Positions 25,713-54,875 of a DNA stretch of 64,000 bases are shown here, one piece after another; positions within the stretch are counted from its first letter, which is position 1; every line of letters starts with the position of its first letter. The stretch is from Candidatus Eiseniibacteriota bacterium (GTDB lineage Bacteria; Eisenbacteria; RBG-16-71-46). The position numbers and the translations under genes are program-made. The notes under the pieces were generated by a model. That model made no database searches. It was not told the DNA's origin and saw nothing but the letters and a program-made list of their open reading frames with translations. The stretch spans positions 2,912,001-2,976,000 of the forward strand of contig OY970178.1 in the NCBI GenBank assembly GCA_963707915.1, given 5' to 3'.

Positions 25713-27103
25713 GCCTGCTCTCGGCCCGGGACCTGTGGGTGGCCCCGCCCGCCGAGGGAACGCAGCGCGGGGGGGTCGCCGAGGCGGTCATCCGGGGGCT
25801 CTCGCTCGAGCTGGGGGCCGGCGAATGGCTGGCCGTGCGCGGGGCGAACGGCTGCGGCAAGACCAGCCTGCTCCTCGCGCTCGCGGGCCTCTGGCCGGTG
25901 CGCTCGGGCGAGGTGCGGTTCGAGGGCCGGACCTTCGGCCCCGGAACGCCGGCGGAACGGCGTGCCCGCATGGCGGTGATCCTGCAGGACCCCTCGAGCC
26001 AGCTGCTGCAGCCGACGGTGCGGGAGGAGCTGGCCTTCTCGGCCCTGAACCTGGGACACGCGCCGGACGAAGTGTCCGGCGAGGTCGCGCGCTGGAGCGA
26101 TCGGCTGGGGCTGGCCGACGACCTGGCCAGGGACCCGCAGCAGCTCTCGGCGGGGCGGCAGCAGTTGGTGCTCGTCGGGGCGGCGCTCGTCGCGCAACCG
26201 ACTTTGTTGCTGGCGGATGAGCCCGCCGCGCACTTCGACCGCGAGACCCGGCGCCGGGTGCTCGAGCTGGTGCGCGGAGAGGTGGATCGCGGGCTCTCGG
26301 TGGTCTGGGTGACGCAGGACGACGACGAACTGGCGAGTTCCGATCGCAGCCTGGACCTGGGCGCCGGCGAAACGGTGGAGATAGCTCGCAACGCGCCATT
26401 CCCGAAGACCTTGGAAGGTCCGACCGAGACGCTCCTCACGCTGCGCGTATCCCCGTGGGACGGCCGCGGCGGCCCCGCCGTGAGGACCTCCGTCGCGCTG
26501 GCGATCCCGGTATGGAAGACCGGTGTGACGGCGATCGAAGGGCCCAACGCCGTCGGCAAGAGCGTGCTGCTCGGAGCCGCGGCGGGCATCCTGGCGCTGG
26601 AGCAGGTCCGGGTGGACGGCGGGCCGGACCCAGCGTCCCCACCGATTCTCTGCTCCCAGTACCCGGAACTCGAGATCTTCGAGGAAAGGGCCAGGGACGA
26701 AGTGATTTACGCCGCTGTCAGCCGTGGGGTCGCGCCGGCGCGCGCCCTGGGGGAAGCGACCCAACTCCTCGAGCGGCTCGGGCCCGGGTCGGGCGCGATG
26801 CTCGAGCGCCACACCTGGGGACTCTCGGGCGGCGAGAAACGCCTGCTTTCGCTGGTCGCCGCGCTCGTCGCCCCGGCCTCGATGTACGTGCTGGACGAAC
26901 CTACCGCCGGGCTCGATTCCCGCCGCCGCCTCGCCCTGGCGGGGATCGTCGCGGAATGGTCCCGGCGGGCCGCCGTGCTGCTCGCCAGCCAGGACGGCGC
27001 CTGGCTGGATGGGCTCGCCGCCGGCCGTAACCGCCTGGGGGCCCGACCCGGTCAACCGCTGGAAGTCACGGCGAAAAAACGGATTGACAAGACCCTGTCG
27101 TAA
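25709..27103 (+). CDS. Fused double ABC ATPase, ECF-transporter type (divergent)
   Basis: Two Walker A (GANGCGKT, GPNAVGKS), QDP..Q..TVREE loop, LSAG/LSGG signatures, two DEP Walker B. Confidence 0.8.
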   Translation: MSLLSARDLWVAPPAEGTQRGGVAEAVIRGLSLELGAGEWLAVRGANGCGKTSLLLALAGLWPVRSGEVRFEGRTFGPGTPAERRARMAVILQDPSSQLLQPTVREELAFSALNLGHAPDEVSGEVARWSDRLGLADDLARDPQQLSAGRQQLVLVGAALVAQPTLLLADEPAAHFDRETRRRVLELVRGEVDRGLSVVWVTQDDDELASSDRSLDLGAGETVEIARNAPFPKTLEGPTETLLTLRVSPWDGRGGPAVRTSVALAIPVWKTGVTAIEGPNAVGKSVLLGAAAGILALEQVRVDGGPDPASPPILCSQYPELEIFEERARDEVIYAAVSRGVAPARALGEATQLLERLGPGSGAMLERHTWGLSGGEKRLLSLVAALVAPASMYVLDEPTAGLDSRRRLALAGIVAEWSRRAAVLLASQDGAWLDGLAAGRNRLGARPGQPLEVTAKKRIDKTLS

Positions 27104-27112
27104 GCCTAGCCT
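27084..27112 (+). promoter_or_regulatory. Strong sigma70-type promoter of the 1464-aa gene
   Basis: AAAAAA tract, then TTGACA-N17-TAGCCT; upstream context nearly identical to the HU promoter. Confidence 0.7.
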
Positions 27113-27465
27113 TTCCTTTGGCTGGGGAGGATGGTGCGTCCTTTTTGAAACCCCCAGGAGCACCTCAAGTTCCGCGGTCATGGGTGGCGCAGGAGCTGGC
27201 AGCGGTTCCGGCGCGGCCTTATGGCTCACGACGAGATCACACATAAGAATGTGCCGTACGTCACCTGAACTGCCTAAGGGCGACGTCGGCAGCGGGAAGG
27301 GGGGATTCGCACTCGACTGGCGCTGTAATCAGCCGTCGGAGCCCGGACCCATGGTCCGTGGGCGTTCCGTCGGCCGATTCGTTTCTGGCGACACCTCGCT
27401 CGCAATCCGTTCCGGAAGACTTCGCATTGCCCAAGCACTAGCATTGCGACGACGGAGGTAGTCAA

Positions 27466-30400
27466 ATGAGAAAGTCGTTTGTCGCGCTCGCCCTTCTCGT
27501 GGGGGCAGCGACGATGTTGACGACCCTGGCTTTTGCCCAGGAAGGAAGCACCCAGGATCAGGGCGCGATTCTCAAGATCAGGTCGAGCCTTGTCACCAAG
27601 GCCGCCCGTCTTGGGACGTCGGCAGCCACGGATACCCTGTGGGTCGGCCACACCACGGCCGCGACTCACAGCCATCCGTGGAACGTCGGCGTCGGCCCGA
27701 ACCGCCCTGGCGCGGGCGGGTCGTACAACGGCACGTGGGACTTCGACACCTTCGACAATGGCGCCGCGAGCGACTCGGCTCAGGGCTGGGTTCCGATGAA
27801 CTCGCCCAATCCCCGTACGAGCGGCACCATCTCTGACGACCTGCGTTCGTGGAACTGCCTCGACTGGGGCAACCGAATGAACGCCGCGGAGCGTCAGGGC
27901 CGTACGCCTGGCATCATCAGCGCGTGGCATGCGGACAACGGCGCGTACCCCGCGTACGTTGCCCCGATCTGCCCCACGTGCCCGCCGAACTCGTGGACCC
28001 CGCTCGCCGGCGCGAAGTCGGCGTGGTGCGGCCTGCGCGCCGGTGACGACTTCTCCGTCGTCGATGCGATTGCCTACGGCGGCACCGGCAACCACATCAA
28101 CGGCAACGCCCTGATCGGCCGCTTCGGAACGAACCTGAACTCGCAGGGCGGCAAGCAGACGCAGAAGAACTTCCCGGGCTACGCCAATCAGTGGGACCAG
28201 ATGATGTACCGGGACATCCGCGTCGCTTCCAGCACGCCGGTCACCGTCAGCTTCCTCTACGAGACCCAGATGGACACGCGGGCTGACGTTGCTCCGGCCA
28301 CGACGTCCGGCTGGTTCGACAAGGATCCGCTGAGCCTCCAGCAGGGCGGGTTCGGTGTCGCCGCGAACAACTTCATCAGCGCCTCGGCGGCCGGTGCCGC
28401 CAACGCGCCCGTCGATTCGTTCATGGTCTACGTGGGCGTGCCCACCGACCCGGCGGACTGCCGTTACACCGACTGGCTCTCGGGCGACCCGGCGCGGCCG
28501 ATCTTCGACCTGAAGCGCCGCTGGTTCTCGGAAGTCATCGCCGTCGACAAGCCGTATCACGAGATCCTCAGCACGTTCGGTCGTGACTCGGCGTTTGCGG
28601 CCTTGCCCTACTCGGCGACCGTGACCGCAGGGCAGATCGACGCCATGATCGCCGCCCAGGGCGGCGTTGGCGGCGGCGTGATCCGCGTCGTCTTCCGCGT
28701 CAAGACCAACGCGAACTACGCCGACGAGCAGAACACCGGCGGTTCGTTCAACTCGACCAACAAGGGCGCCGCCCGCATCGACCAGGTGGCGATCACGGGT
28801 GCCACGCCCGCCTTCACCACCAGCGGCTTCGAAACCGACGGCGAGATCGACAACACGATCGAAGGGGCCAACTCGGCCTCGCCCGGTCCGGCCGTCGGCG
28901 CGGGCTACGCGTTCGCGGCCTGGCACACGACCGGCAAGTCGCCGAAGATCATGCCTCACCTCCACCCGATCGCGGGCGGCGACATCGGCCCGGGCAACTC
29001 CTACACCGCGCTGGCCTACGCTGACCTGTGCGGCGTCTGGAATTCGCCCATCCGCGGGTGCAACATCAACGGCATCGTCGTCTCGATGACCGACCACGAC
29101 CTCCTCGAGGCCGCGGGCGGCGCGGACGGCACTCCGTTCAAGGAGGTCCGTCAGGGCTTCATCTCGCCGACCATCAACCTGGTCACGCCGGCGATGCCCG
29201 GGACCAACGACGTCGGCCTCGACGCGCAGCACGTCGCGACGAACCAGCCCTGGCTGCTCTTCAACGACCTGTACACCGGCATCTACGCCGACGTGTACGC
29301 CCAGGGCAACCTGTACGCGCTCACGCTGATCAGCTACCCGACGTTGCAGAAGAACGGTGCGACGATCTGGGGCGACCTCGGCGTCATCAGCTCCGTGTCC
29401 TGGTGGGGCGATTACTACTGCCTCCAGGATCAGAATACGGTGTCGGAGTTCATCAACACGTCGAACCCCACCGGTATCCCCGATTCGGTCAAGGTCGTGT
29501 TCTACCGCGAGCAGCGCTGCATCAGCTTCGGTGCGACGAACTGCTCTTCGACGGACGGTCACTACGTCGACAACATCGCGCTGGGGTTCCCCCCGCCGAC
29601 GACCGGTAGCTCCGACAACATCTCCATCGATATCTGGGATTGGTACACGGATGCCTTCCCGCGCAACGAGACGGTGGCGCTTCCTGGCACCGCCGGCTTC
29701 GACACCTGCGCGGCGAACATCTACAGCGCGTTCCAGCGCGCGACCGCTTCCACCGACGGCGTCCGGAGCAACATCGCCTCCGATACCATGTTCATCAAGG
29801 GGACGAACAGCACCGGCACCCCGGCGCGGATGGATGCCGTCTTCCGTGTCTACCCTGGTCCTGGCAACTACGTGATCCCCGGCAACCGGTCGTCGGGTCT
29901 GCGTCAGGTGCCGACCAGCACGACGCCCGCCGTCTCGGGTGATGCCTCGTTCTGGGGCCAGTACATGGCGGACCCGGGCACGTTCAGCAAGGGCGTGCAC
30001 ACGGGCGCTCCGTCGGGCTGGAACGTGGACACGTGGAACAGCGTCCGCGTCGACACGGTCGAGAACAACATCTTCCCGGCGATGGCGAACAACGCGAATC
30101 TTCCCGCCATCACGGCAGAGAACTGGGCAAGCATGATCTATGACGGTTCCGAGGGCGGAGTGGAGCCGAAGTTCGCCACCCTGGGAATCCTCAAGAACCG
30201 CTGCTTCCTGATCGATCCTTCTGCCGGCGCCGTGGTGAACCACACCAACATCGACTGCGCCACCGTGCCCGCCTGGGTGCTTCTGCCCGGGACCGGGTAT
30301 GACGGCAACCAGCAGACCCGGGAGTACACCTCGATCTTCCCGAGCGGGTTGCTGACGCCCGGATCGAGCATCGAGTACTTCTACCGCTTCTCCAAGCTCG

Positions 30401-31860
30401 CGAGCCCGGGCGTCATCGCCACGATGAACCCGGACACGGACGTGGTCTTCGTCCAGAAGGGCGGCCACTGGAACTACGACGGTCTGCGCTGGGCGAGCAT
30501 CTTCGTCCTGCCGGACAAGTGGAAGTCCATCGAGTACGGCGGCCTCGGCTCGGCCTGCATGCTGGTCGTGAACCAGCAGGCGCGTCGTGGAAACCTCAGA
30601 GGCTGGGCGGGCATCGCGGACTCCATCGGCGCCACCAGAGCCGCCAAGTACGGCGCGGGCAATGGCTGGCACTGCCAGGGTGGCTACATCGCGAGCGATG
30701 GTTCCGGCAACTACACGTCGGAGAAGAACTGCGGCACCGATCCCAACATCGCCGTGTGGCCGAACCGTGGCCAGATGGGCTCCACGTGGGATCGCTACAA
30801 CGTGACGTCGGCGGAGTCGCCGAGCGGCAACGCGGCTCACCTCGGCGGTCGTCTGGCGATCCTGGCCAGCGGCTACCAGCTGGGCAAGGACGCGAAGATC
30901 GGTCCGACGCCCGAAATGCTGAGCACCTACTACAACATGCTGTTCTTCCTCGCTGGCGACATGTCGGGTGTCTGGCTTGGCCCGAACACGAACCAGGGTT
31001 CGCAGGAAATGCTGATCATCGACGACTTCCTGAATGCCAGTGGCCAGAGAGGTGTCTGGATCATGGGTAACGGGTTCGTCGAGGGTCACGACGGTGCTTC
31101 CGCTGCGCACGACATCTTCCTGAACACGACGCTGGGCGTCGCGCTTCGGAGCCCGTCGTACTTCGCGCTGTCGGGCAGCAACGTCCTCTATCCGGACCTG
31201 ATTCCCCAGGGCACGATCATCAACTCGACGGGAGTCCGGTACTCGGTGGTGAATTCCTGCACGTGGACGAACGACGTCCTGACCGAGCAGTCGCCGGTCG
31301 GCGCCGTGCCCGCGACGATGTACCAGAATCTGGGTGCTTGCGTGAGTTGCGTCGCCGGCGTCTACACGCCCTACAACGCGACCCTGCATCCGTACACGAC
31401 GCTCGTGGACGGCTGGGACCTGGCGAACCTGACGAACAAGGGCGGTGGCAGCAGCCTGGGCCGCCTGGGTTACGTCATGGACGTCCTGGTGAACACGTTC
31501 GCTTCGGTCTGTGCGTTCACTGCCGCTCCGACCGTCGACGTGTTCCAGCCGAACGAGACCAGCGCCAGCTACATCAACCTGCTCGGCAACGTGGTGAACA
31601 ACCCGTTGTCGGTGGGCATGGCGACGGTCAACTTCACTCTCGCGAAGAACGATCTGGTGGACGTCAGGGTGTATGACGTCACGGGTCGTCTGGTGAAGAC
31701 GCTGGCGAACCGCCAGGCGTTCAAGGCCGGTCCGAGCAAGCTCGCTTGGGACGGACGGAACGACCAGGGTCAGGTGGTCGCGCGCGGTGTGTACTTCACC
31801 CAGGTGAAGTTCATCAACAGCGGCTTCGTGGACGCCAAGAAGGTCACGGTCCTGAAGTAA
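27466..31860 (+). CDS. Large secreted protein with C-terminal FlgD-Ig/T9SS-CTD-like domain (candidate major surface protein)
   Basis: GGAGG RBS; signal peptide ending AFA; G/N/T/S/W/Y-rich with Cys pairs; CTD VRVYDVTGRLVKTL...WDGRNDQG...GVYF...KKVTVLK. Confidence 0.8.
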   Translation: MRKSFVALALLVGAATMLTTLAFAQEGSTQDQGAILKIRSSLVTKAARLGTSAATDTLWVGHTTAATHSHPWNVGVGPNRPGAGGSYNGTWDFDTFDNGAASDSAQGWVPMNSPNPRTSGTISDDLRSWNCLDWGNRMNAAERQGRTPGIISAWHADNGAYPAYVAPICPTCPPNSWTPLAGAKSAWCGLRAGDDFSVVDAIAYGGTGNHINGNALIGRFGTNLNSQGGKQTQKNFPGYANQWDQMMYRDIRVASSTPVTVSFLYETQMDTRADVAPATTSGWFDKDPLSLQQGGFGVAANNFISASAAGAANAPVDSFMVYVGVPTDPADCRYTDWLSGDPARPIFDLKRRWFSEVIAVDKPYHEILSTFGRDSAFAALPYSATVTAGQIDAMIAAQGGVGGGVIRVVFRVKTNANYADEQNTGGSFNSTNKGAARIDQVAITGATPAFTTSGFETDGEIDNTIEGANSASPGPAVGAGYAFAAWHTTGKSPKIMPHLHPIAGGDIGPGNSYTALAYADLCGVWNSPIRGCNINGIVVSMTDHDLLEAAGGADGTPFKEVRQGFISPTINLVTPAMPGTNDVGLDAQHVATNQPWLLFNDLYTGIYADVYAQGNLYALTLISYPTLQKNGATIWGDLGVISSVSWWGDYYCLQDQNTVSEFINTSNPTGIPDSVKVVFYREQRCISFGATNCSSTDGHYVDNIALGFPPPTTGSSDNISIDIWDWYTDAFPRNETVALPGTAGFDTCAANIYSAFQRATASTDGVRSNIASDTMFIKGTNSTGTPARMDAVFRVYPGPGNYVIPGNRSSGLRQVPTSTTPAVSGDASFWGQYMADPGTFSKGVHTGAPSGWNVDTWNSVRVDTVENNIFPAMANNANLPAITAENWASMIYDGSEGGVEPKFATLGILKNRCFLIDPSAGAVVNHTNIDCATVPAWVLLPGTGYDGNQQTREYTSIFPSGLLTPGSSIEYFYRFSKLASPGVIATMNPDTDVVFVQKGGHWNYDGLRWASIFVLPDKWKSIEYGGLGSACMLVVNQQARRGNLRGWAGIADSIGATRAAKYGAGNGWHCQGGYIASDGSGNYTSEKNCGTDPNIAVWPNRGQMGSTWDRYNVTSAESPSGNAAHLGGRLAILASGYQLGKDAKIGPTPEMLSTYYNMLFFLAGDMSGVWLGPNTNQGSQEMLIIDDFLNASGQRGVWIMGNGFVEGHDGASAAHDIFLNTTLGVALRSPSYFALSGSNVLYPDLIPQGTIINSTGVRYSVVNSCTWTNDVLTEQSPVGAVPATMYQNLGACVSCVAGVYTPYNATLHPYTTLVDGWDLANLTNKGGGSSLGRLGYVMDVLVNTFASVCAFTAAPTVDVFQPNETSASYINLLGNVVNNPLSVGMATVNFTLAKNDLVDVRVYDVTGRLVKTLANRQAFKAGPSKLAWDGRNDQGQVVARGVYFTQVKFINSGFVDAKKVTVLK

Positions 31861-31872
31861 GCTGATCAGTAC

Positions 31873-31955
31873 GGTGGCCGTCCCGCCTTCGGGCGGGCCG
31901 GCCGCCCAGTCGACAAGCCGGCGGGCGGGGGTCCAACCCCCGCCCGCCGGCGTTT
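31873..31955 (+). terminator. Tandem hairpins including an intrinsic terminator
   Basis: TTCG-loop hairpin 31873-31906, then perfect 15-bp stem 31917-31951 followed by GTTT. Confidence 0.7.
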
Positions 31956-32118
31956 GGCCGGGCGATCCAGGACCCGGACCGGCGCGCGGCGCCATCGGTC
32001 CGGCGGGTCCACCGGCCGGCCGCGGGGGGGGGCGGAGGGCGCCCGGGTGGCGGGCCGGCGAAGGGCCCGCCGGGTTGCGCCTGGAGCCTCTTCAGCGTAC
32101 CCTACGCGCTCTTCCGGC

Positions 32119-32148
32119 TTGACGATTACTGGATACTGTTGCTAACCT
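32119..32148 (+). promoter_or_regulatory. Sigma70-type promoter of the lipoprotein operon
   Basis: TTGACG-N18-TAACCT with a TG extended -10. Confidence 0.6.
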
Positions 32149-32193
32149 CTCGTTACTTCCCTCCAACATGACTGGGCGTTCCAGGGGGCGCGG

Positions 32194-34413
32194 ATGCGCT
32201 TGAGTGCACGGGTCGTTCTGTGTTTGCTGGCGTTGTCGTTGGGAGCAGGTTCGGGGTGCCGCAAGCCGTTGGCCCCGAACATCGACAGGAACGAACCCCC
32301 CGAGACGTGGATCACGGCAGCGCCGCTGGACACGCTGACGCTCGAGGACAAGGACGGCCGGCCGGTCGACAAGGACGGCAACCTGATCACGGTGCCGGTC
32401 TCCCCCATGGAGATCCCGGTCCGCTTCCACCTGTACTGGGCGGGCTCCGACAAGGACGGCGCCGTCTCGGGGTTCTACTACGCGGTGGTGGAGACCTCGG
32501 TGATCGCGACCGACGGCTTCCTCCCGCCGCTGCCTGGACCGAATCCCGGCCAGTACCGGTTCACGACCAAGACCGACTCGACCTTCGTGTTCAAGGTCTC
32601 GGAGTTGTTCGCCTACCGGAAGCACGCCTTCTACATCTACTCGGTGGACAACCTGGGCAAGCCGGACCCCACGCCGGCCCGATTCATCTTCAGCGCCCTG
32701 GACAAGTTCCCGCCGCGGCCGGTCTTCGACCTCGCCCGGGCCACCGGCGAGATCGTCAGCCTCACGCCTGGCGGCGAGCCGGTCTCCGAATGGCAGACCT
32801 TCGACGTCACCGACACGCTGAAGCACGGGACGGTCACGAGGGACACGGTGCCGGTCTTCAGCCGGCTGGACTTCCGCTGGCATGGCGAGATCACCCAGCC
32901 CGGGACCTTCGTGGCGGGCTACAGTTACAAGCTCGACGAGCTCGAGTTCCAGCATGCGGACTCCTCGGTGAGGGCGGTTTCGTACGGCACGGGCCTGCCG
33001 GGCTCCTCGCCGGTCGCCCCGGGGCTGAAGATCTTCACGCTTCGTGCGCTCGACCAGGCCGAAGGCGCGGGTGAGACGACCCGGCGTTTCTTCATGAACT
33101 TCACGCCCGACACCTGGTGGGCCGGGCCCGCCCCCGAGGACTTCCCCGTGTCCACGGACGGGGAGTATGGCTCGCGCAGCGTGGACGTCATCAGTTGGCC
33201 GAGCCCGATCAGCCCGGCGTTCGTGACGAATCCTCCGCTGCCGGCAGGTTCCACGTTCGGTTCGGACTCGTTTGCGTACCGGCCCTCCAAGCGGTTCCCG
33301 CCGCGCCGGGACTTCGAGCGGCCCGGGACCTTCTACGAGATCTACAAGAACCGCTTCTATGCCCGCACCGAGGGCGACACCGTCCACATGAACTCGTGGA
33401 TCCTCCTGTGGAACGGTGGCTACGACAAGGACTCGCGTTACATCCCCAGGGTGGACAGCACGGACCAGCACCTGCAGAACCCGGACGGCAGCCTCGCCAC
33501 CGGAGAGGTGCTCGCGTCCGCGGGCCGGGTCGGTTCTCCGATCGGGTTCCGTTCCCAGGTCCCTTCCCGCCTGACTCCGGCTGGCCTGAAGAGCGTCCCG
33601 GCGCAGACCTCGATCTACCCGGTCTTCGAGCCCGCGTCGGTCTTCCGTTCCCCGCGGCTGGGGGGGTACTGGCGCATGCGGTCGGCGGGGAAGGCCTTCG
33701 CCCTGGCCCGTGCCGAGGACGCGGACGGCGGCCTCGACCAGACCGTGGTGGACCCGCTGCGGCTGGCCGAGACCGTGGACAACGGCGGAGGCACGCCGGC
33801 GGAACGCGCGCTGCGGCGCAAGGTGCTGGTCTTCTACGTAAACAAGGCGCCCGCGCTGGTCAGGACCGGGTCCCCGCCCTTCCAGCCCACCGACGGCCAG
33901 CTCATCAACTCCGTCCAGTGGACCTTCCTCCTGCGCGGCATGGACCTCGACCCGTTCGATTCCGAAGACGTCAACACCGGGGGCGGTGGTCCCACTCCGA
34001 AGACGATCATCCGCTACAAGATCACGCTCTACGGACAAGGATGGGTGGCACCCGACGGTCCCACGGGCCGCGACACGTCCTGGACCTACCTCCAGCCGAC
34101 GGGCCTGCCGTACATCCAGACCCTGGGCGGGGACCAGTCCCTGCTCTTCACCCCCGGCGGGACCATGGCGAAGAACATGTTCGCCTCGGGCCCGATCCGG
34201 GTGAGCATCCAGATCTGCGACTGCGCCGAGTGCGAGAGTGCGCCGGGACAGGGCCGCTGCGTCGAAGGCATCGACCCGTTCACCAAGCAGGTTCTCAACC
34301 CTGGAAACGTCATCACCGTCAATTACGAGAGGCCGCCAAGCGAGCCGGGACTTGGAGCCAGTTCATCGACCGGGGGCCAGCCGGGGCCCGACGCGTCGGG
34401 CAGGAGAGACTGA
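32194..34413 (+). CDS. Predicted lipoprotein with Ig/Fn3-like beta modules
   Basis: Lipobox-like GSGC (Cys22); NEPPETWI, WAGSDKDGAV..FYY, H.FYIYSVDNLG; C-terminal CDCAEC..C. Confidence 0.7.
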   Translation: MRLSARVVLCLLALSLGAGSGCRKPLAPNIDRNEPPETWITAAPLDTLTLEDKDGRPVDKDGNLITVPVSPMEIPVRFHLYWAGSDKDGAVSGFYYAVVETSVIATDGFLPPLPGPNPGQYRFTTKTDSTFVFKVSELFAYRKHAFYIYSVDNLGKPDPTPARFIFSALDKFPPRPVFDLARATGEIVSLTPGGEPVSEWQTFDVTDTLKHGTVTRDTVPVFSRLDFRWHGEITQPGTFVAGYSYKLDELEFQHADSSVRAVSYGTGLPGSSPVAPGLKIFTLRALDQAEGAGETTRRFFMNFTPDTWWAGPAPEDFPVSTDGEYGSRSVDVISWPSPISPAFVTNPPLPAGSTFGSDSFAYRPSKRFPPRRDFERPGTFYEIYKNRFYARTEGDTVHMNSWILLWNGGYDKDSRYIPRVDSTDQHLQNPDGSLATGEVLASAGRVGSPIGFRSQVPSRLTPAGLKSVPAQTSIYPVFEPASVFRSPRLGGYWRMRSAGKAFALARAEDADGGLDQTVVDPLRLAETVDNGGGTPAERALRRKVLVFYVNKAPALVRTGSPPFQPTDGQLINSVQWTFLLRGMDLDPFDSEDVNTGGGGPTPKTIIRYKITLYGQGWVAPDGPTGRDTSWTYLQPTGLPYIQTLGGDQSLLFTPGGTMAKNMFASGPIRVSIQICDCAECESAPGQGRCVEGIDPFTKQVLNPGNVITVNYERPPSEPGLGASSSTGGQPGPDASGRRD

Positions 34414-34414
34414 G

Positions 34415-37042: not shown

Positions 37043-37055
37043 CGGGAGCCGTCGA

Positions 37056-38153
37056 ATGACTCGAACTGGTCGCGATCACCGCATCCCCGTCCTCGTCCTC
37101 CTGGCGCTGGCCCTCATGGCCGGCGCCGGGAGCGTGTCCGCCGCCCACGCCCAGTCGGGCGAGACTCCGCAGCAGTTCTGGCATATCCCGGTCTGGGCCA
37201 TGCCGGGGGCGTGGCAGGACAACACGGCCCGCGACTCCACCCGCTGCGTCGGGAGGGTGGAGCCCCGGCTGGACAGCCTGACTCAGAGGTCACGAACCAT
37301 CACGGTGCGCTTCCTGCGCAGCCGGCGGGTCGAGGCGCGGGCCGACTTCGGGGGGTACCGGATCTACCGCTGCACCAACACGCGGGACACCACCACCGCG
37401 ATGCTGCTGCGACGCTACTCGGTGAACGACTTCGACGAGCCGTTGTGGCACTTCTCGCGCGTGGACACGACGGTCGCCGACAGCCTCCCGTTCCGGTGCG
37501 GCTCGGCGCCGGCCTACTACGACAGCGTCCTGACGTTCGTGGACCCGGATTCCAGCGGGGCCCTGGTCAAGGTGTGTCGCTACGCGACCCCGGGCGAATG
37601 CATCGCCAAGCGTGACTCGGTCTGGGCGCTGATGACGGTGCCGGGCCCGCACGACGGCTTCCGTACCTGGTACTCGGTCACCTACGAGGCCAGGAACACG
37701 ATCGACAACACCTACGAGGACATGTTCGTCCCGGACACGGGCGACGACTACGCCCGCTGCGGCCAGTACGGGGACCCGCGGACCTGCCCGAACCTGAACA
37801 ACAAGCTCGCGAACATGATGGCCGAGGCCGACTACGTCGAGCCGACCAAGGGGCCCACCCAGAACCTGCAGGCCGTGACGGTGGTGCCCAACCCGTTCCG
37901 GGGCCGGGAATCGTGGGACCGACCGGACGGCAACGAGGTGCACTTCAACAACCTTCCGTCCAAGGCGAGGATCCGGGTCTACACGGTCGCCGGGGACCTC
38001 GTCCGCGATCTGAACCACGACGATCCGGTGCGTGACTTCGAGCGCTGGGATCTCAAGAACGCGAATGGCCGGGACGTCGTCTCGGGGATCTACATGTACC
38101 GGGTCGAGTCGGGCAGCTTCTTCGCCCAGGGTCGTTTCACCGTCATTCGCTAG
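37056..38153 (+). CDS. Secreted Cys-containing protein with C-terminal CTD-like domain
   Basis: Signal peptide ending AHA; DFGGYRIYR; VVPNPF, FNNLP, IRVYTVAGDLV, WDLKNANG..VSGIY, FTVIR. Confidence 0.75.
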   Translation: MTRTGRDHRIPVLVLLALALMAGAGSVSAAHAQSGETPQQFWHIPVWAMPGAWQDNTARDSTRCVGRVEPRLDSLTQRSRTITVRFLRSRRVEARADFGGYRIYRCTNTRDTTTAMLLRRYSVNDFDEPLWHFSRVDTTVADSLPFRCGSAPAYYDSVLTFVDPDSSGALVKVCRYATPGECIAKRDSVWALMTVPGPHDGFRTWYSVTYEARNTIDNTYEDMFVPDTGDDYARCGQYGDPRTCPNLNNKLANMMAEADYVEPTKGPTQNLQAVTVVPNPFRGRESWDRPDGNEVHFNNLPSKARIRVYTVAGDLVRDLNHDDPVRDFERWDLKNANGRDVVSGIYMYRVESGSFFAQGRFTVIR

Positions 38154-38352
38154 GCTTCAGCGGGCCGGCGAGGCCCTGGAACGGACGGCGCGGCCGCGGG
38201 TTGGCGAAGAGCTCCCGCGGCCGCGGTCTTCCTCCCCCCCGGGGCCCGCGACGCCGGCGTGCGGCGGCGCGGGGTTCCACGGCATGGGGGCGGACAGGCT
38301 ACAATGGACGCACCGGCGCGTGGTCCAGGAGCCGGTGGAGGTTGAAGGCGCG

Positions 38353-40203
38353 ATGGTCCAGAGAATGACGGCCGCGCTGCGCGGGGTCCCGGGCGTCGCC
38401 GCGCTGCTGCTGGTCTCCTGCCTGGCCGGCCCGGCTGCGGCCGTGGCGCTCCAGGGCGAGCCGGCCTCGAAGCTCGATCCACGCCTGTGGTCCGCGCTGT
38501 CGGCCGGCGAGGCCGAGCCGGTGAGCGCGTGGGTCACCTTCGGGGACAAGGGCGAGACCGGTCCCGGCGACCTCGTCCGGCGACTCGCCGAGGCCGGGGC
38601 CGCGCTCGAACCGCGCGCGCGCGCGCGCCGCGAACGGGCCGGGGTCACGCCGCTGGTGGACTACCTCGACCTGCCCGTGCACGCGCCCTACGTCGCTGCG
38701 GTCCGGGCGCTGGGACTCGCGCCCTACGGGACCTCGCGCTGGTTCAACCGCGTGGCGGTGCGGGCCGACGGCGCCCAGCTGGCGGCCCTGGCTGGGCTGC
38801 CCTGCGTCGCGGCGCTGACTCCGGTGGACCGGGCGATGCCGATGCGGGACGTGCCCGCCGGCCCGGGCCCGGGAGCGCGCGGAGCGGCGCCGGCCTCGGT
38901 GCGGGCGGCCACGGCGCTCGACTACGGGCTCGCCGCCCCGCAACTCGCGCAGATCGGCGTGCCCGCGCTGCACGACTCGGGCTACACCGGCGCCGGTGTG
39001 CTGGTCTGCGTGCTCGACGAAGGCTTCAACCACTACCGCACGCACCCCGCCCTCCGGGACGCCGAGGTCCTGGCGACGCGCGACTTCGTGCGGGGCGTGG
39101 AGGATCCGACCGACCCCGCGCACGACAGCTGGTTCTCCCACGGGACCCACACGCTGAGCTGCATCGCCGGCGACCAGCCGGGCCGCTACCTCGGCGCCGC
39201 GCCGGGCGCGGCGTTCATGCTCGGGCGCACCGAATACCACCCCACCGAGACGCCGGTCGAGATGGTCTACTGGGGCATGGGCGCGGAGTGGGCCGACAGC
39301 GCGGGCGCCGACATCATCAGCTCGTCCCTCGGGTACGGCCCGTTCGACTACCCGGAGACCTCCTACACCTACGCCTCGATGGACGGCCACACCACCGTCG
39401 TCAGCCGGGCGGCGGAGATCGCCGCCAGCAAGGGCATCCTGGTCGTGAACTCGGCGGGCAACTACGGCAACCAGGCCTGGCACTACATCCTCGCGCCGGC
39501 CGACGTGGACGGCGACAGCCTGATCGCCGCGGGCGCCGTGGACGCGAACGGCACGCCCGCCGGCTTCAGCTCGTACGGTCCCAGCGCCGACGGGCGGGTG
39601 AAGCCCGACCTCGCAGCGCTCGGCGTGGCCGCGTGGGTCGCGATGGCCGCCGACACGGGCTACGTGCAGCAGAGCGGCACCTCGTTCTCCTGTCCGCTCC
39701 TCGCCGGGCTCGCCGCCTGCCTGATGCAGGCGCGACCCGGCTGGCCACCGAGGCTCATCATCCGCGGCCTGCGGCTCACCGCCTCGCAGGCCCTGGAGCC
39801 CGACGATCGCGTGGGCTACGGCATCCCCGACGGGGCCGCCGCGCTGCGCTGGATCCCGGACACCGCCTCGGTTCCCGGTCCGCCGCCCTTCACGCTGGGA
39901 TTGCGCCTCACCGGGGCGAATCCCATCACCCCCCGCGCACCCGTGACCCGCGTGGACTTCGGTGTGGGGGCCGGGGTGGGCGAGCCGCGGTTGCGCGTCT
40001 ACGACGCCCAGGGCCGCCTGGTTGTGCGGGACCTCGAGAGCAAGCGCAATCCCCAGGTCGCCGGGAACGGGCTCGCGCGGACCGCGACCTGGGACGGCCG
40101 CGACAGCGACGGCAGGCGGTTGCGGAGCGGGATCTACTTCATCACGCTCGAAGCCGGCGGCCGGCGCGCCGCGCTCCGCGTGATCTCCCTGCTTTCGCGT
40201 TGA
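38353..40203 (+). CDS. Secreted subtilisin-like (S8) serine protease with FlgD/CTD-like domain
   Basis: Signal peptide; triad VLDEG, SHGT, GTSFSCP; NSAGN, FSSYGP, KPDL; CTD WDGRDSDG..SGIYF. Confidence 0.9.
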   Translation: MVQRMTAALRGVPGVAALLLVSCLAGPAAAVALQGEPASKLDPRLWSALSAGEAEPVSAWVTFGDKGETGPGDLVRRLAEAGAALEPRARARRERAGVTPLVDYLDLPVHAPYVAAVRALGLAPYGTSRWFNRVAVRADGAQLAALAGLPCVAALTPVDRAMPMRDVPAGPGPGARGAAPASVRAATALDYGLAAPQLAQIGVPALHDSGYTGAGVLVCVLDEGFNHYRTHPALRDAEVLATRDFVRGVEDPTDPAHDSWFSHGTHTLSCIAGDQPGRYLGAAPGAAFMLGRTEYHPTETPVEMVYWGMGAEWADSAGADIISSSLGYGPFDYPETSYTYASMDGHTTVVSRAAEIAASKGILVVNSAGNYGNQAWHYILAPADVDGDSLIAAGAVDANGTPAGFSSYGPSADGRVKPDLAALGVAAWVAMAADTGYVQQSGTSFSCPLLAGLAACLMQARPGWPPRLIIRGLRLTASQALEPDDRVGYGIPDGAAALRWIPDTASVPGPPPFTLGLRLTGANPITPRAPVTRVDFGVGAGVGEPRLRVYDAQGRLVVRDLESKRNPQVAGNGLARTATWDGRDSDGRRLRSGIYFITLEAGGRRAALRVISLLSR

Positions 40204-40259
40204 CCCGCACTCGGTCTCCTCTTCCCATGTTCCGACTCCAGACGAAAGGACCCCTGCGC

Positions 40260-41693
40260 ATGAAGACACCAGGACTGTTCCTGCTCCTCGCGACCGTGGC
40301 GGCGCTCGCGCCCGCGTCCCGGGCGCCAGCTGCGGCGCCGGTGCCGGCGCCCGTGGTCCCCGCGGTCGCCCCGGCCACCGACGTCCGGCTGGTGACGCTC
40401 AAGAACGGCTTGCGGCTCCTGCTGGCGCCCGACTCGACGTCGGTCGCGGTGGACGTGGCCGTCTGGTACCGGGCCGGCGCGGTGCACGAGCGTGCGGGCA
40501 TCAGCGGCATCTCCCGGCTGTTCGAGCGGCTCCTGTTCGCCGGCTCGGGGAGCTTCGGTCCGCAGGAGCACGCCCGCCTGGTGCAGGCCGAGGGCGGCTC
40601 GGTCGGCGCGTACACCACGTCCGACTACGCGTGCACCTACCAGACCATCCCGTCCGGCGCGCTCGAGCTGGTCCTGAAGCTCGAGGCGGACCGCATCGGC
40701 TCGCTCAAGCTGACGGACGCGGCGGTGGAAGCCGCGAAGCGCACGACCCGCGCGGAGAAGCGCCAGCGGGACGAGGCGTCGCTGATCGGCGGGGCGTTCG
40801 AGGGGCTCGGGCGGCTCGCGTGGCCGGGGCACCCCTACCGCTGGCCCGTCATGGGGCTCGACGAAGACCTCGTGCGCATCAGCCTGGCGGACTGCCAGGC
40901 CTACTACCTGGAGCATTTCGCGCCCAACAACGCCACCGTGACCATCGTCGGCCGGTTCGACCCGGACCAGGCGCTGCTCGCGGCGAAGCGCTGGCTCGAG
41001 CCGGTCAAGCGCCGTCGCCTCGCGGGCGATGCCGCGCGGCCCGAGCCGGCGCAGACGACCGCGCGCCGGGCGTTCGAGCGCATGGACGTGCCGCTCGGCC
41101 TGGTGCTCGTCGGGTGGCGGGCCCCGGGTCACGGGGACCCGGACAGCCCTGCCCTCGGCCTGCTCTCCCGCATCCTCACCCGGGGGCCGGCCTCGCGGCT
41201 GCAGCGCGCCCTGAAGGCCGAGCCGCTGCGGTGCGTCCTGGTCCAGGGGGTCCTGGACGACCGGCGTGACGACGCCCTGCTCTGTGCCGTCGCCGTCACC
41301 AGGCCGGGCGCCGACAGCGCAACGGTCGAGCGCGTGCTGGTCGAGGAGGTCGAGAAGCTCGGCCGGGAGCCGGTCGGGGAGGAGGAGCTGGAACGTGCCC
41401 GGCGGCAGGAGGAGATCGCCACCCTGCTCGCGTGGCAGACGGTCCGCGGCCGCGCCGACGCGCTGGGCTCGGCCCAGATGCTCCAGGGCGACTGGCGCGC
41501 CGCCGCGCTCCGTCTCGACCGCGTGCTCCGGCTCACGCCGGCCGACCTGCAGCGCGCCGCGGCGCGCGTGCTCGTCCCCGGCGGGCGCGACGTGCTGTGG
41601 GTCGCGCCCGTGAACCCGGCGGCGGTGGCTCCGGCGGGCTCCGTTGGCGGAGCGCCCGGTTCCGGTGCGCCGCCTGCCGAGGGAGGACGATGA
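40260..41693 (+). CDS. M16 (pitrilysin/insulinase) peptidase homologue with HxxEH replaced by RLFER
   Basis: Signal peptide; LKNGLR, WYRAGAVHE..G.SG, AYTT.DY, LEADR, HPYRWPVMG, PNNATV.IVG. Confidence 0.85.
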   Translation: MKTPGLFLLLATVAALAPASRAPAAAPVPAPVVPAVAPATDVRLVTLKNGLRLLLAPDSTSVAVDVAVWYRAGAVHERAGISGISRLFERLLFAGSGSFGPQEHARLVQAEGGSVGAYTTSDYACTYQTIPSGALELVLKLEADRIGSLKLTDAAVEAAKRTTRAEKRQRDEASLIGGAFEGLGRLAWPGHPYRWPVMGLDEDLVRISLADCQAYYLEHFAPNNATVTIVGRFDPDQALLAAKRWLEPVKRRRLAGDAARPEPAQTTARRAFERMDVPLGLVLVGWRAPGHGDPDSPALGLLSRILTRGPASRLQRALKAEPLRCVLVQGVLDDRRDDALLCAVAVTRPGADSATVERVLVEEVEKLGREPVGEEELERARRQEEIATLLAWQTVRGRADALGSAQMLQGDWRAAALRLDRVLRLTPADLQRAAARVLVPGGRDVLWVAPVNPAAVAPAGSVGGAPGSGAPPAEGGR

Positions 41694-43873
41694 CCATGAC
41701 CACGCTCACCAGAACGCTCGCCCGCAGCCTTGCGGCGGCCCTCGTTTCCCTGCTGTCGGCGGGATCCGCCGGGGCCTTCGCCGCCGAGACCAACGCCTTC
41801 GTTCCGCCGGCCCCGATCGTGCGCACGATGCCGAACGGGCTCCGGGTGGCCGTCTTCCGGGACGGCCGTCTTCCCCTGGTCCAGATGCAACTGCTCCTGC
41901 CCGCCGGTGGGGCCCAGGACCCGGCGGAGGCGCCCGGCGTGGCCAACGCCACGGCCCTGCTCCTGCGCTCCGGCACCAGTTCGCGCACGGCAGAGGGCTT
42001 CATGGCCGACGTGGACTTCCTCGGCGGAAGCATCAGCGGTGCCGCGACGCGGGACTACTCCGACGTGAGCGGGACGTTCCTCTCGGCCGACTTCGAGGCG
42101 GGACTGGAGTTGTTCGCGGACGTCGTCGTGAATCCCATCTTCCCGCCCGAGGAAGTGGAACGCTTCCGGACCCAGGCCGCCGAGCAGCTGGTGCCCCTGC
42201 ATCGGAACCCCGTCGGCGAGGCGGAGGACCAGCTCTGGGCCCTGGCCTTCCCGGGGCATCCGTACGGGCGGAGCCCGGTGGGCACGCTCGAGTCGCTGTC
42301 ACGCCTGGACCGCGAGGCGGTGAGGGCGTTCCACCGCGACTACTACCGGCCCGACCGGGCGGTCCTCGCGATCGCGGGGGACGTGGACCCCGAACGCGCC
42401 TTTGCCGCGGTGAACGACCGCTTCGGCAGCTGGGCGGGCCGGTCGGCAAGGACGATCCGCCCGCCCCTGCCCACGGCGCCGGCCGCGATGCGGATCCAGA
42501 TCGTGGACCGCCCGGGCCTGGCCCGCAGCGAAGTCCGCGTCGGACTGGTCTGCCCGCCGCGCACCGACCCCGACGCCCTGCCGCTGCAGGCGGCGAGCTA
42601 CATCCTCGTCGGCGGGCCCGTGTCGAGGTTCGCCCGGTCCCAGCGCGCGGAGGGCGGACTGCCCTTCGAAGTGGCCGGCAGCCAGACCGTCCTGCGCGAC
42701 GCCGGCCTGGTGAGTCTCGGGGGCGCGGTCCGCAACGATTCCGCCGCCGCCCTGGTCACCCGCGTTCGCGACGAGCTCGCCCGCCTGCGCACGCAGCCTC
42801 CGGACGAGGCGGAAGTGGCGGCCGCGCGGCGCAGCTTCGTGAACACCTACCCGCTCCAGTTCCAGACGCCGGGGGCGCTCGCGGCGCAGTGGCTGGGAGC
42901 GGACTTCTATGGCCTCACCGCGGACTGGCTCGACCACTACGTCGCGAGCGTCGGTGCCGTGACCGCCGGCGGGGTGGACTCCGCCGCCTCGCGCTGGCTG
43001 GATCCCTCGCGCTGCGTGGTGGTCGTGGTCGGCCCCGCGGACGAGCTGAAGGGGCAACTCGAGGTCCTCGGCCCGGTGGAGGTCGCCGGCGCCGCGGGAG
43101 ATGTCGCCAGCCGGGCCCCGGTCGCGCCGGCGCAGGCCACTGCCGAACAGAAGAAGCGCGGACGCGAGTTGCTGGCCCAGGCACTGGTTGCACACGGCGG
43201 CCTGGAGCGGCTGCGCAAGGTGACGGACACGACGGTGGAGGGCGACATGGTCCTCCAGGTGGAAGGCCGGAGCCTCACGATCCTGGTGCGCCAGGTCCGC
43301 AAGGAGCCCTTCCGCATGAGGTACAGCACGCGCATCTCGAGCATGGAGAACGGCCAGATCCTCAACGGCGCGCGGGGCTGGCTCTACTCGAGCCTCGACT
43401 CGGTGCGGGTGACGAGCCTGGACAGCACGGGTGTCGAAGCGCTGCGGTCGGTCTTCCGCTCGGATATCGTGCATTCGCTGCTGGCCGCCGCCGGGCCGAC
43501 CGTCGAGGTCGCCTGGCTCGGGACGGGCCGTGCCGACGGACGCACGGCCGAGGTGATCGAGGTGACCTCCCCGGCGCCTCTGGGCGGGGGGCGCCGGGAG
43601 CAGCGGCTCCTCTACCTGGACGCCACGGACCACCGGCTGATCGCCGAGGACCTGGGTGACGCCGCGGCGCGGGCGAGCGCCATGGCGGTGCGCCGCGTCT
43701 ACCGCGACTACCGTCCCGTGGCGGGCGTGTCGTGGCCGTACCACGAGGAGCGCATGCTCGGCGGCACGAAGACCATGACCCTCAGCCTGGAGAGCGTGAC
43801 CATCAACACCGGCGTGAGCGACGCGACGTTCGAGCCGCCCAAGCCGGCGCCGAAGGGCGTGCCGCTCCACTAG
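41690..43873 (+). CDS. Non-catalytic M16 subunit fused to a C-terminal LolA-like beta domain
   Basis: GGAGG RBS with ATGA overlap; signal peptide; PNGLRV, GVANATA.LLRSGT, HPYGR, YYRP; C-terminal AHGG..RL, YLDATDHRL, YRDYR.V.GV.WP, INTGVSDATF. Confidence 0.8.
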   Translation: MTMTTLTRTLARSLAAALVSLLSAGSAGAFAAETNAFVPPAPIVRTMPNGLRVAVFRDGRLPLVQMQLLLPAGGAQDPAEAPGVANATALLLRSGTSSRTAEGFMADVDFLGGSISGAATRDYSDVSGTFLSADFEAGLELFADVVVNPIFPPEEVERFRTQAAEQLVPLHRNPVGEAEDQLWALAFPGHPYGRSPVGTLESLSRLDREAVRAFHRDYYRPDRAVLAIAGDVDPERAFAAVNDRFGSWAGRSARTIRPPLPTAPAAMRIQIVDRPGLARSEVRVGLVCPPRTDPDALPLQAASYILVGGPVSRFARSQRAEGGLPFEVAGSQTVLRDAGLVSLGGAVRNDSAAALVTRVRDELARLRTQPPDEAEVAAARRSFVNTYPLQFQTPGALAAQWLGADFYGLTADWLDHYVASVGAVTAGGVDSAASRWLDPSRCVVVVVGPADELKGQLEVLGPVEVAGAAGDVASRAPVAPAQATAEQKKRGRELLAQALVAHGGLERLRKVTDTTVEGDMVLQVEGRSLTILVRQVRKEPFRMRYSTRISSMENGQILNGARGWLYSSLDSVRVTSLDSTGVEALRSVFRSDIVHSLLAAAGPTVEVAWLGTGRADGRTAEVIEVTSPAPLGGGRREQRLLYLDATDHRLIAEDLGDAAARASAMAVRRVYRDYRPVAGVSWPYHEERMLGGTKTMTLSLESVTINTGVSDATFEPPKPAPKGVPLH

Positions 43874-47927: not shown

Positions 47928-48454
47928 GCCAGGCCGTGCTCAAGGGCGACCTGGGCCGGTTCCAGCCGGCCGAGGTCCTCCAGTTCCTGCAGCTCGCGCA
48001 GGTCACCGGGCGGCTGGAGCTCTCGCGCCTCGCGGCCGGCCCGGGGGCGGTGCCGGGCGCCGAGGAGAGCGTGGACGTGTTCTTCGTCCAGGGCCGTCCG
48101 GTGTTCGCCCGCACCAGCGGGCAGTCGGTGAGGACCGGCGAGATCCTGGTCCATCGCGGCCACGCCACGCACGGGGCGGTGGTCGGCGCGCTCGAGGCTC
48201 AGCGCCGCGGGGCCCGGGGCCGCATCGGCGAGGTGCTGGCGGAGCGCGGGTCGGTCGCGCCCGCGCTGGTGGTGCAGGCCGTGCACGAGTGCGTGCGGCG
48301 CATCCTCTACGGCATGCTCCTGTGGCGCGAGGGGCGCTTCCGCTTCTACGCCGACGAGCGCGCCGACGACGACCTGCCGCTCGACCTCGACCTCGACCGG
48401 CTGATCCTCGAGGGCCTGCGGCTCGCCGACCAGGCGCGCGCCGAATCCCGCTAG
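47924..48454 (+). CDS. DUF4388 (PatA N-terminal-like) domain protein
   Basis: TTG overlaps the previous stop; LKGDL..F...EVLQFL....TGRL, RIGEVL, WREGRFRF, LILEGLRLAD. Confidence 0.75.
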   Translation: MSQAVLKGDLGRFQPAEVLQFLQLAQVTGRLELSRLAAGPGAVPGAEESVDVFFVQGRPVFARTSGQSVRTGEILVHRGHATHGAVVGALEAQRRGARGRIGEVLAERGSVAPALVVQAVHECVRRILYGMLLWREGRFRFYADERADDDLPLDLDLDRLILEGLRLADQARAESR

Positions 48455-48470
48455 CTCCCGACCGGACCCC

Positions 48471-50624: not shown

Positions 50625-50767
50625 GCGAGCGCGGCCACGATCCGCCGCGGCCCACGGCCCTCCCGCGCACCCGCGACCTGACCGGGACCGAGCCCGGCCG
50701 GACGCCCGCCCGCCCGGCACGCGCGTTGCGATAGACCCGCCGCGTACCGCCCCCGAGGGGAGAGTCC

Positions 50768-52459: not shown

Positions 52460-53262
52460 CGCCGGCGCGCGTGGCGCTGCTCGCGCTGGCCGTGTCGCTG
52501 GCGCCGGTGGCGCGCGCCGGAGCACAGGACTTCTTGGGCGTCGCGCCGCCGGGGCCGGTGTCTGCCCCGGGCGCCTTCATCGAGAGCGGCCTGCCTGGCG
52601 CAAGCGCGGGATCCGCGCTCGACGCGACGTACACGAGCTGGTTCGGCCTGCCCGAGCTCGAGACCCGCGCGCTGGCCGGCGGCGCCGGCTGGCGGCCGGT
52701 GCGCGTCGCGGCCGGCGTCTCGCAGACCGGCGCGCCGGATCTCGGCTGGAGCGCCGTCGGGCTGGCGGGCGGCGTGGCGCGCCCCGCCGGCGGCGCGGGC
52801 CTGCGCGCGGTGGCGCGACGGGAACGCGCGATCGCGCCGGGCAGCGCGGCGGCCGCGCGGCTCGACGCCCGGGTGGGCGTGGAGGTGGGCTGGGGAGCGT
52901 GGCTCGAGGCGGCGCGCGGATGGCGGGTCTGGGCCGCGGTGCCGCAGTCGTGGTGCGCGGGCACCGCGCCGCCGCTCGATCGTCCACTCGAGATCGGCGG
53001 GCAGTACGAGAGTGACGGCCTTGCCCTCTGGCTGACGCGCTCGGCCCCGTCCGGCGGGGCGGAGGCCGACCACGGTGCGGGCGTTGCGCTGCGCTCGGGG
53101 CCCCTGCTCGCGTGGGCCTCGGTGCGTGACCGGCCGCTGCGCGGCGGCGTGGGGCTGACGGCGTCGGTCCGGCGGCTGTCCGTGGCCGCGATGGTCGAGA
53201 GCCATCCCGAGCTGGGCGAGACGCTGCGACTCGCGCTCGGTCTCGCCGGCGCGGCACGGTGA
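52456..53262 (+). CDS. Hypothetical exported protein, predicted outer-membrane beta-rich
   Basis: ATGA overlap; signal peptide; alternating beta pattern; YTSWFGLPEL, HPELG motifs. Confidence 0.55.
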   Translation: MTPARVALLALAVSLAPVARAGAQDFLGVAPPGPVSAPGAFIESGLPGASAGSALDATYTSWFGLPELETRALAGGAGWRPVRVAAGVSQTGAPDLGWSAVGLAGGVARPAGGAGLRAVARRERAIAPGSAAAARLDARVGVEVGWGAWLEAARGWRVWAAVPQSWCAGTAPPLDRPLEIGGQYESDGLALWLTRSAPSGGAEADHGAGVALRSGPLLAWASVRDRPLRGGVGLTASVRRLSVAAMVESHPELGETLRLALGLAGAAR

Positions 53263-54713: not shown

Positions 54714-54875
54714 CGAACGAAGCGTCGAGGCACCCGCGCTCCGCCCGACGATGGCAGCCGCCGCGCCGCCACGCCACTTCGGGGCGAGCGCCGGGCATCG
54801 CACCGACGGTGGTACGGGGCGTGCAGGACTCGGCGGACGTCACGCCCCCGTCACCTGCCCCCGTGGGGATGCACC

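Follow-up and report, generated by a model that had tools for sequence, protein, structure and literature searches.

Type A cargo of type IX secretion systems (T9SS) in Porphyromonas gingivalis and other Bacteroidota carries a Sec signal peptide and, at the C terminus, an immunoglobulin (Ig)-like β-sandwich tail (C-terminal domain, CTD). T9SS cargo includes adhesin-like jelly-roll proteins and proteases; the protease mirolase, for example, is a subtilase. The excerpted text of PMC11285876 gives mirolase of Tannerella forsythia as T9SS cargo and allows that T9SS may occur outside Bacteroidota, in other phyla of the Fibrobacteres–Chlorobi–Bacteroidetes (FCB) group. Here we analyse a locus with candidate cargo of this kind from the phylum Eisenbacteria (Candidatus Eisenbacteria / Eiseniibacteriota, the lineage to which the names of homologues also point): seven genes, G1 to G7 in order, in a 64-kb window (the whole stretch of 64,000 nucleotides analysed, positions 2,912,001 to 2,976,000 of contig OY970178.1, assembly GCA_963707915.1; positions below are numbered within the window) from a host genome of 3.62 Mb in a single contig. 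Real reading frames were chosen by third-position G+C (GC3) frame analysis together with reading of the open reading frames (ORFs). These and the signal sequences confirmed an initial annotation of seven consecutive same-strand genes (plus strand, 27466-43873 in our frames), all coding for exported proteins, with hydrophobic N-terminal signal sequences that, read by eye, are kept in orthologues. That annotation also held that no such system had been described in the lineage; in the library searched, we found no paper combining Eisenbacteria with T9SS or 'type IX secretion', but T9SS outside Bacteroidota is, as noted, already in print.

We favour, with moderate confidence, a reading of the region as two adjacent, separable exported-protein modules, namely a lineage-specific, T9SS-dependent surface binding module (module A) and an independent protease module (module B). 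In module A, G1 and a translationally coupled G2-G3-G4 would be a set for binding at the cell surface that is specific to the lineage. Export of G1 and G4 across the inner membrane would be via Sec; their FlgD-Ig-type CTDs would then be recognised and the outer membrane crossed through SprA, after which PorV-PorU would process both proteins. G2 and G3 would be lipid-anchored in the outer membrane, and module A would depend on both a T9SS-like and a Lol pathway. With a jelly roll and a probably non-catalytic GATase1/ThuA-like domain in G1, and an fn3 stalk followed by a domain of that type in G3, these two proteins would act as glycan- or polymer-binding scaffolds rather than enzymes, and the modelled folds suggest that module A may bind a glycan, another polymer or the cell's own envelope. 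Module B, comprising G5-G6-G7, would combine a T9SS-exported subtilase with an M16B-type pair. Synteny of the block as a whole, rather than membership of a single machine, would explain why the modules lie side by side.

The export route proposed for module A has genomic counterparts. As in Bacteroidota with a T9SS, the genome encodes SprA/Sov (over cut-off, 501 bits summed), a C25-type PorU with its own tail and an adjacent PorV. Of 61 genomes sampled from the phylum, 60 contain SprA. PorU, at 464.9 bits (cut-off 420), combines a Peptidase_C25 domain with a FlgD_ig tail, and the gene directly after it matches PorV (PF19572, 36.2 bits against a cut-off of 27; NF033710, 81 bits against a cut-off of 250). 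These genes make plausible the link from CTD to T9SS that had been suggested from the locus alone.

FlgD-Ig/CTD-like ends are present, as initially annotated, on G1, G4 and G5, always at the extreme C terminus and together with a signal peptide of Sec type judged by eye. Unlike those of Bacteroidota cargo, these tails obtain higher scores with FlgD_ig (PF13860) than with TIGR04183, for which G1 (17.3 bits) and G4 (16 bits) stay below the cut-off of 23; only G1 passes the FlgD_ig cut-off (Table 1). The G1 tail also has a below-cut-off match to the PorU tail and a profile match to the PorU CTD 6za2. PorZ (E 3e-7) and PorU have C-terminal tails that the G4 tail matches, and in the orthologue alignment the motif of the G4 tail reads VVPNP...GIYMYRVE...VVIR.

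The tails of G1, G4 and G5, with those of orthologues, were used to build a hidden Markov model (HMM). It matched 100 ORFs in the genome; in 99 the match lies at the C terminus, and 93 of these have E <= 1e-5. CTD genes are clustered genome-wide, with 20 triples within 12.7 kb compared with 4.6 +/- 2.3 under random placement, and the studied locus is one of 11 clusters of at least three CTD genes. Random placement of 99 CTD ORFs yields at least one such triple in 98.7% of cases. With about 99 CTD ORFs in 11 clusters, CTD clustering is thus routine in this genome, and three CTD genes close together are not beyond chance. Two further genes in the window carry such tails. One (13385-15268, plus strand) encodes a 627-aa Peptidase_M64 protein of the IgA peptidase family, whose FlgD_ig-type tail scores 23 bits, under the cut-off, and, judging from its sequence, is likely to be another T9SS cargo. 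The other, a minus-strand ORF at 62470-63999 that continues past the window end (genome 2974470-2976350), matches the CTD HMM at its C terminus (E 9e-10) and is the fifth CTD gene in the window.

The division into modules comes from gene order and spacing among relatives. We collected 20 relatives' loci around G3 homologues (labels with L denote loci and those of the type G120 denote genomes) and found the order G1-G7 kept in 11 of them, as far as contigs reach, so the gene order on which the initial annotation had staked its proposal is indeed conserved. Each of the 11 loci is from a different genome, and 9 genera are represented; ten loci belong to the window's own family (f1) and one to a second family (f2) of the same order. 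The G1-G4 order was also seen on single contigs of further genomes, for example G059:C147 and G005:C127 and, in f2, G085:C188, G150:C275 and G065:C86. In our locus and those of the 11 relatives, G1 and G2 are 185 to 407 bp apart. G2-G3 (-4 to 47 bp, with an overlap in 8 of the 11 relatives) and G3-G4 (-4 to 24 bp) are tightly spaced, as are G5-G6 (-4 to 59 bp) and G6-G7 (-4 to 41 bp, mostly -4), and G4-G5 distances range from 184 to 2,559 bp. These distances therefore define three likely units: G1 alone, G2-G3-G4 and G5-G6-G7.

The widest of these intervals is frequently occupied. Eight of the ten loci in which both G4 and G5 were called have a same-strand ORF of 337-514 aa between them, which Pfam identifies as Asparaginase_II in L025 (E 2.5e-108) and L035 and which was recognised in the other six by common sequence motifs only; L035 has a class III aminotransferase there as well. 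Conservation also extends beyond the seven genes, with pyruvate phosphate dikinase (PPDK) downstream in 10 of the 11 syntenic loci and ABC-F upstream in 7. The remaining nine loci hold lone G3 paralogues among unrelated neighbours, including DXP (1-deoxy-D-xylulose 5-phosphate) synthase, pyruvate dehydrogenase (PDH) E1 and kinases, with an Asp-protease/PDZ gene in three. We rejected the idea that G3 paralogues always accompany CTD genes, as only one of these nine loci (L026) has a FlgD_ig protein nearby. One subfamily of G3 paralogues stands out: in L039 (12046-14196) and L040 (12034-13989), its member lies directly downstream of a secreted Asp_protease_2 plus PDZ protein with a 4-bp overlap, and in L041 (9785-13999) the two apparently form one 1,404-aa frame, for which Pfam gave no match.

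Distributions were tallied over 150 other genomes of the phylum (151 with our own), with the unpublished genome G015 included in the f2 counts but none of its sequence used. G1 without its tail is confined to the two families (57 of 59 f1 genomes, 6 of 6 in f2 and 0 of 86 elsewhere). G2 (53 of 59 and 6 of 6) is full-length only in f1 and f2, with only residues ~77-315 found elsewhere, and the N-terminal part of G4 (53 of 59 and 6 of 6) is otherwise limited to one weak match among three f3 genomes (elsewhere 0 of 83). The G3 family is far broader, being present, often in multiple copies, in 144 of 151 genomes and having 2,313 representatives at E <= 0.001 in a library of 1.84 billion proteins. 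The tail domain of G7 occurs in 106 of 151 genomes and 13 of 17 families. G2 and G4 are essentially single-copy, whereas several genomes have multiple G1 copies, arranged in tandem in, for example, G066:C293 and G084:C1; the multiplication of G1 was independent of that of G3, and neither was accompanied by G2 or G4. In G120 (G120:C4:872458-882811), of the same genus as our genome, the G1 and G3 orthologues are each in two pieces, in different frames or separated by a stop, reflecting either frameshifts or errors in this five-contig assembly.

Structure comparison gave G1 and G3 a common domain type. An AlphaFold2 (AF2) model of G1 residues 440-1375, built from a 30-sequence alignment with a predicted local distance difference test (pLDDT) score of 69.5, contains a jelly roll that resembles the pro-meprin MAM domain (7uab, VIA Z 8.5) and Bacova_02650 (8.1). 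Weak Foldseek matches of this jelly roll (E 6e-4 to 4e-2) include the Fbs1 sugar-binding domain, the carbohydrate-binding module (CBM) families CBM16/22/27/28 and the Kgp K3 adhesin domain. The second modelled G1 domain best matches 2gk3 (VIA Z 14.4, root-mean-square deviation (rmsd) 3.3, 208 residues aligned), with 3rht (14.0), Agd3 6nwz (13.6), ThuA-like 4jqs (13.4) and the N-terminal domain of IFT52 (12.5) also recovered. The AF2 model of G3 (45-sequence alignment, pLDDT 81.3) comprises four fn3/Ig-like domains in residues 30-410, for which Foldseek returned fn3 tandems, then an α/β domain in residues 413-792 and a disordered Pro-rich tail. The best match of this α/β domain is the GH42 middle domain 5xb7 (VIA Z 13.1, rmsd 3.6, 208 aligned), with 4jqs (11.8), 3rht (11.5) and 1t0b (11.3) below it.

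Both α/β domains thus share the fold of GATase1/ThuA-like (flavodoxin-like) domains (Z 13-14 for G1 and 11-13 for G3), with largely the same top matches. They differ from described members in sequence identity (8-14%, and no Pfam match), in large insertions (~330 residues in G1 and ~380 in G3 compared with ~210 aligned) and in their siting in a CTD-tagged secreted protein and a lipoprotein. At the sequence level hhalign shows no relation between G1 and G3 (probability 0.5%), despite the common fold. G3 413-792 has no invariant or near-invariant Cys or His and so lacks the Cys-His-Glu triad of class I glutamine amidotransferases. The modelled folds of G1 and G3 look like binding or scaffold folds rather than recognisable enzymes, the Cys/His check covering G3 only.

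Sequence searches with the four module A proteins were largely silent. Pfam and NCBIfam gave nothing for G3 or for the bodies of G1 and G4, G2 had no match in Pfam (up to E 5), NCBIfam or PDB sequences, G4 none in Pfam, and the N-terminal parts of G1 and G4 gave nothing meaningful in Pfam up to E 5. PDB sequence and profile searches with G1-G4 returned only CTD (FlgD, PorU) and low-complexity matches, and the ESM Atlas gave nothing usable for G1 residues 985-1375 and generic Ig/fn3 leads only for G2. No characterised enzyme family was matched by G1-G4 in Pfam, NCBIfam or PDB sequence searches, which supports the initial annotation on this point. The lipobox Cys of the lipoproteins is invariant in 12 G2 and 45 G3 sequences. 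The two had been called paralogous twins, and their lipobox regions and first (fn3-like) domains are indeed related (~112 columns; hhalign 98.7%, E 2.8e-16; BLASTP 25% identity over 180 columns), but they are not full-length twins; beyond its first domain G2 has no detectable relatives in these searches.

Two side observations concern G2 and G4. A second G2-like gene in the same genome (G000:C1:1784128-1785750, minus strand) is 53% identical over residues 177-724 and has one in-frame TAG. In G123:C181, G068:C171 and G127:C157, the G4 match is split into residues ~4-144 and ~135-263, ~0.9-1 kb apart but each time within one open frame of 700-788 aa, which suggests a large inserted in-frame domain in G4.

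In module B, G5 is a Peptidase_S8 protein (E 1.6e-37) whose triad (D222, H263, S444) is invariant in 11 of 11 aligned sequences, with the oxyanion Asn in 9 of 11, so the subtilase is intact, as first described. G6 and G7 each have Peptidase_M16 and M16_C domains, are 31% identical and overlap by 4 bp. They resemble the α/β pairs of M16B peptidases and of the mitochondrial processing peptidase (MPP), with two overlapping homologous genes of which one never has the zinc motif; the excerpted text of PMC11266112 describes a two-gene α/β arrangement for prokaryotic MPP homologues. Unlike in those pairs, G6 has also lost both His of HxxEH, reading RLFER, G7 has an additional domain of 270 aa without family match (Pfam, up to E 5), and both subunits have signal peptides. 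The initial report of an M16 pair without a zinc motif is therefore upheld for this genome.

Intermediates in relatives trace how G6 reached this state. HxxEH is missing from G7 and all its orthologues, and among 11 aligned G6 sequences HLFEH is intact only in L035, the single f2 orthologue aligned. Seven f1 orthologues retain HxxE, with the second His replaced by R, Q or G, and both His are gone in the window's G6, L027 and L037. The intact motif in L035 and the stepwise decay in f1 indicate that the ancestral state was an ordinary active/inactive M16B pair, of the kind described in PMC11266112, and that M16 inactivity is a recent trait of f1. With the zinc ligands of the formerly catalytic subunit lost in f1, the M16 pair can at most bind peptides here. 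The tail domain of G7 is also seen in open frames of 250-400 aa in the phylum and twice more in the same genome.

Several observations weigh against the two-module reading. Profiles of the motor components GldL, GldM and GldN (PorL/M/N) had no match in the genome, in searches run without a positive control, and the sole GldK match (85 bits against a cut-off of 350) is an FGE-sulfatase domain protein without LMN-like neighbours. The genome-wide search that the initial annotation had proposed thus recovered SprA, PorU and PorV but not PorKLMN, and the T9SS here would be either a reduced one or one with very divergent motor proteins. In this respect and in its host phylum, the system departs from that of Bacteroidota, and CTD cleavage and attachment to lipopolysaccharide (LPS) are only putative here. 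The CTD scores of G4 and G5 are under the curated cut-offs. The link of G1 to G2-G4 comes from conserved adjacency and a common distribution in genomes that are related and not independent, and extra G1 copies and the nine lone G3 loci occur without the partner genes. Glycan binding, finally, is suggested by fold resemblance at modest scores, with a pLDDT of 69.5 for G1 and weak jelly-roll matches.

In an alternative that we hold to be unlikely, there is no functional unit beyond the two tight triplets, and G1 is one more T9SS cargo gene kept in place by family-wide synteny. The wide G1-G2 gap, solitary G1 paralogues in tandem arrays, genome-wide CTD clustering and syntenic flanks are all consistent with it. 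Against it, G1, G2 and G4 have the same narrow distribution, and G1 and G3 both contain a domain of an unusual type, for which the best structural matches are the same.

Slightly less likely is an extracellular foraging locus, with G1-G4 capturing a surface polymer (glycan or glycoprotein) and the subtilase and a periplasmic M16 pair degrading protein for uptake. The CBM/MAM-like jelly roll, GATase1-like domains of the glycoside hydrolase and Agd3 kind, the intact secreted S8 protease and the many CTD-tagged hydrolases elsewhere in the genome, such as the M64 peptidase in the window, would suit such a role. However, a scan of 23 proteins encoded between 13385 and 57203 revealed neither a TonB-dependent transporter nor a SusC/D pair, and thus no Sus-like locus, and no glycoside hydrolase either, no catalytic domain was found in G1-G4, and the M16 pair is unable to bind zinc in this genome.

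Very unlikely, in our judgement, is the single seven-gene surface-assembly system of the initial annotation (G1 as subunit, G2/G3 as anchors, G5 as maturation protease and G6/G7 as periplasmic chaperone): all seven proteins are exported, their order is retained across two families and an M16 pair without zinc ligands would fit a binding-only role, but the set is broken by a gene for a cytoplasmic Asparaginase_II in most of the relatives' loci, conservation is just as strong for the housekeeping flanks, many families without G1, G2 and G4 have the G7 tail domain, G1 and G3 vary independently in copy number, and intact HxxEH in L035 means that a chaperone role of the M16 pair is not ancestral.

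Within module A, a more specific arrangement is conceivable but improbable. G1-G4 might together make up a complex, built on lipoproteins, at which T9SS cargo docks and in which the GATase1/ThuA-like domains of G1 and G3 would pair, presuming that these proteins touch, and would hold G1 at the surface without LPS attachment. Homologous GATase1-like domains pair in GH42 oligomers. For Cytophaga hutchinsonii, the excerpted text of PMC12860637 describes LPS-dependent anchoring of T9SS substrates in the outer membrane; it concerns surface retention of cargo, the same question that arises for G1 and G4, whereas the G1-G7 locus would suggest lipoprotein partners instead of LPS. If true, a docking complex would be a second, protein-based means by which type IX cargo is kept at the surface, in a phylum with a T9SS that possibly also lacks the PorKLMN motor.

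We do not propose a new kind of machine, and the value of the locus lies in its annotation and in the idea of lipoprotein-held T9SS cargo. An uncultured phylum of soil and sediment devotes ~99 ORFs to type IX-style cargo, and G1-G4 represent four unannotated, lineage-restricted envelope protein families with recognisable folds that are candidates for its cell-surface cover. Among relatives the M16 zinc site has been lost step by step, which provides a natural series of pseudo-enzyme formation.

Table 1. Genes G1-G7 and features within them (window positions; aa, amino acids; nt, nucleotides).
Feature	Position	Strand	Description	Basis or remark
G1	27466-31860	+	1464-aa secreted protein, signal peptide	ORF, GC3 frame, FlgD_ig over cut-off
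G1 jelly roll, MAM/CBM-like β	28936..29592	+	residues ~491-709	AF2 model, structure comparison
G1 GATase1/ThuA-like α/β domain	30535..31527	+	residues ~1024-1354	structure comparison
G1 C-terminal FlgD-Ig/T9SS-type CTD	31600..31860	+		PF13860 31.4 bits at 1391-1448 (cut-off 27)
G2	32194-34413	+	739-aa lipoprotein	lipobox LGAGSGC
G3	34415-37042	+	875-aa lipoprotein	lipobox IGGAGC
G4	37056-38153	+	365-aa secreted protein, CTD-like tail	
G4 CTD-like tail	nt 37851-38153	+	residues ~266-365	
G5	38353-40203	+	616-aa S8 subtilase, CTD-like tail	alternative start 38365
G5 CTD-like tail	nt 39964-40203	+		FlgD_ig 24.2 bits (cut-off 27), TIGR04183 19.5 (cut-off 23)
G6	40260-41693	+	477-aa M16 homologue	alternative start 40227
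G6 zinc-motif position RLFER	nt 40515-40529	+	residues 86-90	HxxEH expected
G7	41690-43873	+	727-aa non-catalytic M16 homologue, extra C-terminal domain	
G7 C-terminal domain	nt 43052-43870	+	conserved 270 aa, residues 455-727	

The window has a G+C content of 70-79%, with a lower stretch at 27-38 kb (0.65-0.68). We rejected horizontal transfer as its cause: GC3 is ~0.9 there and the drop is confined to codon positions 1 and 2, as expected from the amino-acid composition of the proteins and not from a foreign source. Internal promoters and terminators, from which several transcription units had initially been read, received no support from a consensus scan. It gave a single promoter-like site, which lies on the minus strand, where 1.0 was expected, and a single terminator-like site where 5.6 were expected. 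Upstream of G1 are a gene resembling LarB (weak AIRC match), LarC (Ni_insertion) and an ATPase of ABC type, which we read as ABC-F; PPDK follows G7. Further downstream, beside two large ORFs without Pfam match (48405-50624 and 53130-54713), the plus strand encodes two Lamin Tail Domain proteins (50735-52459 and 54714-55514).

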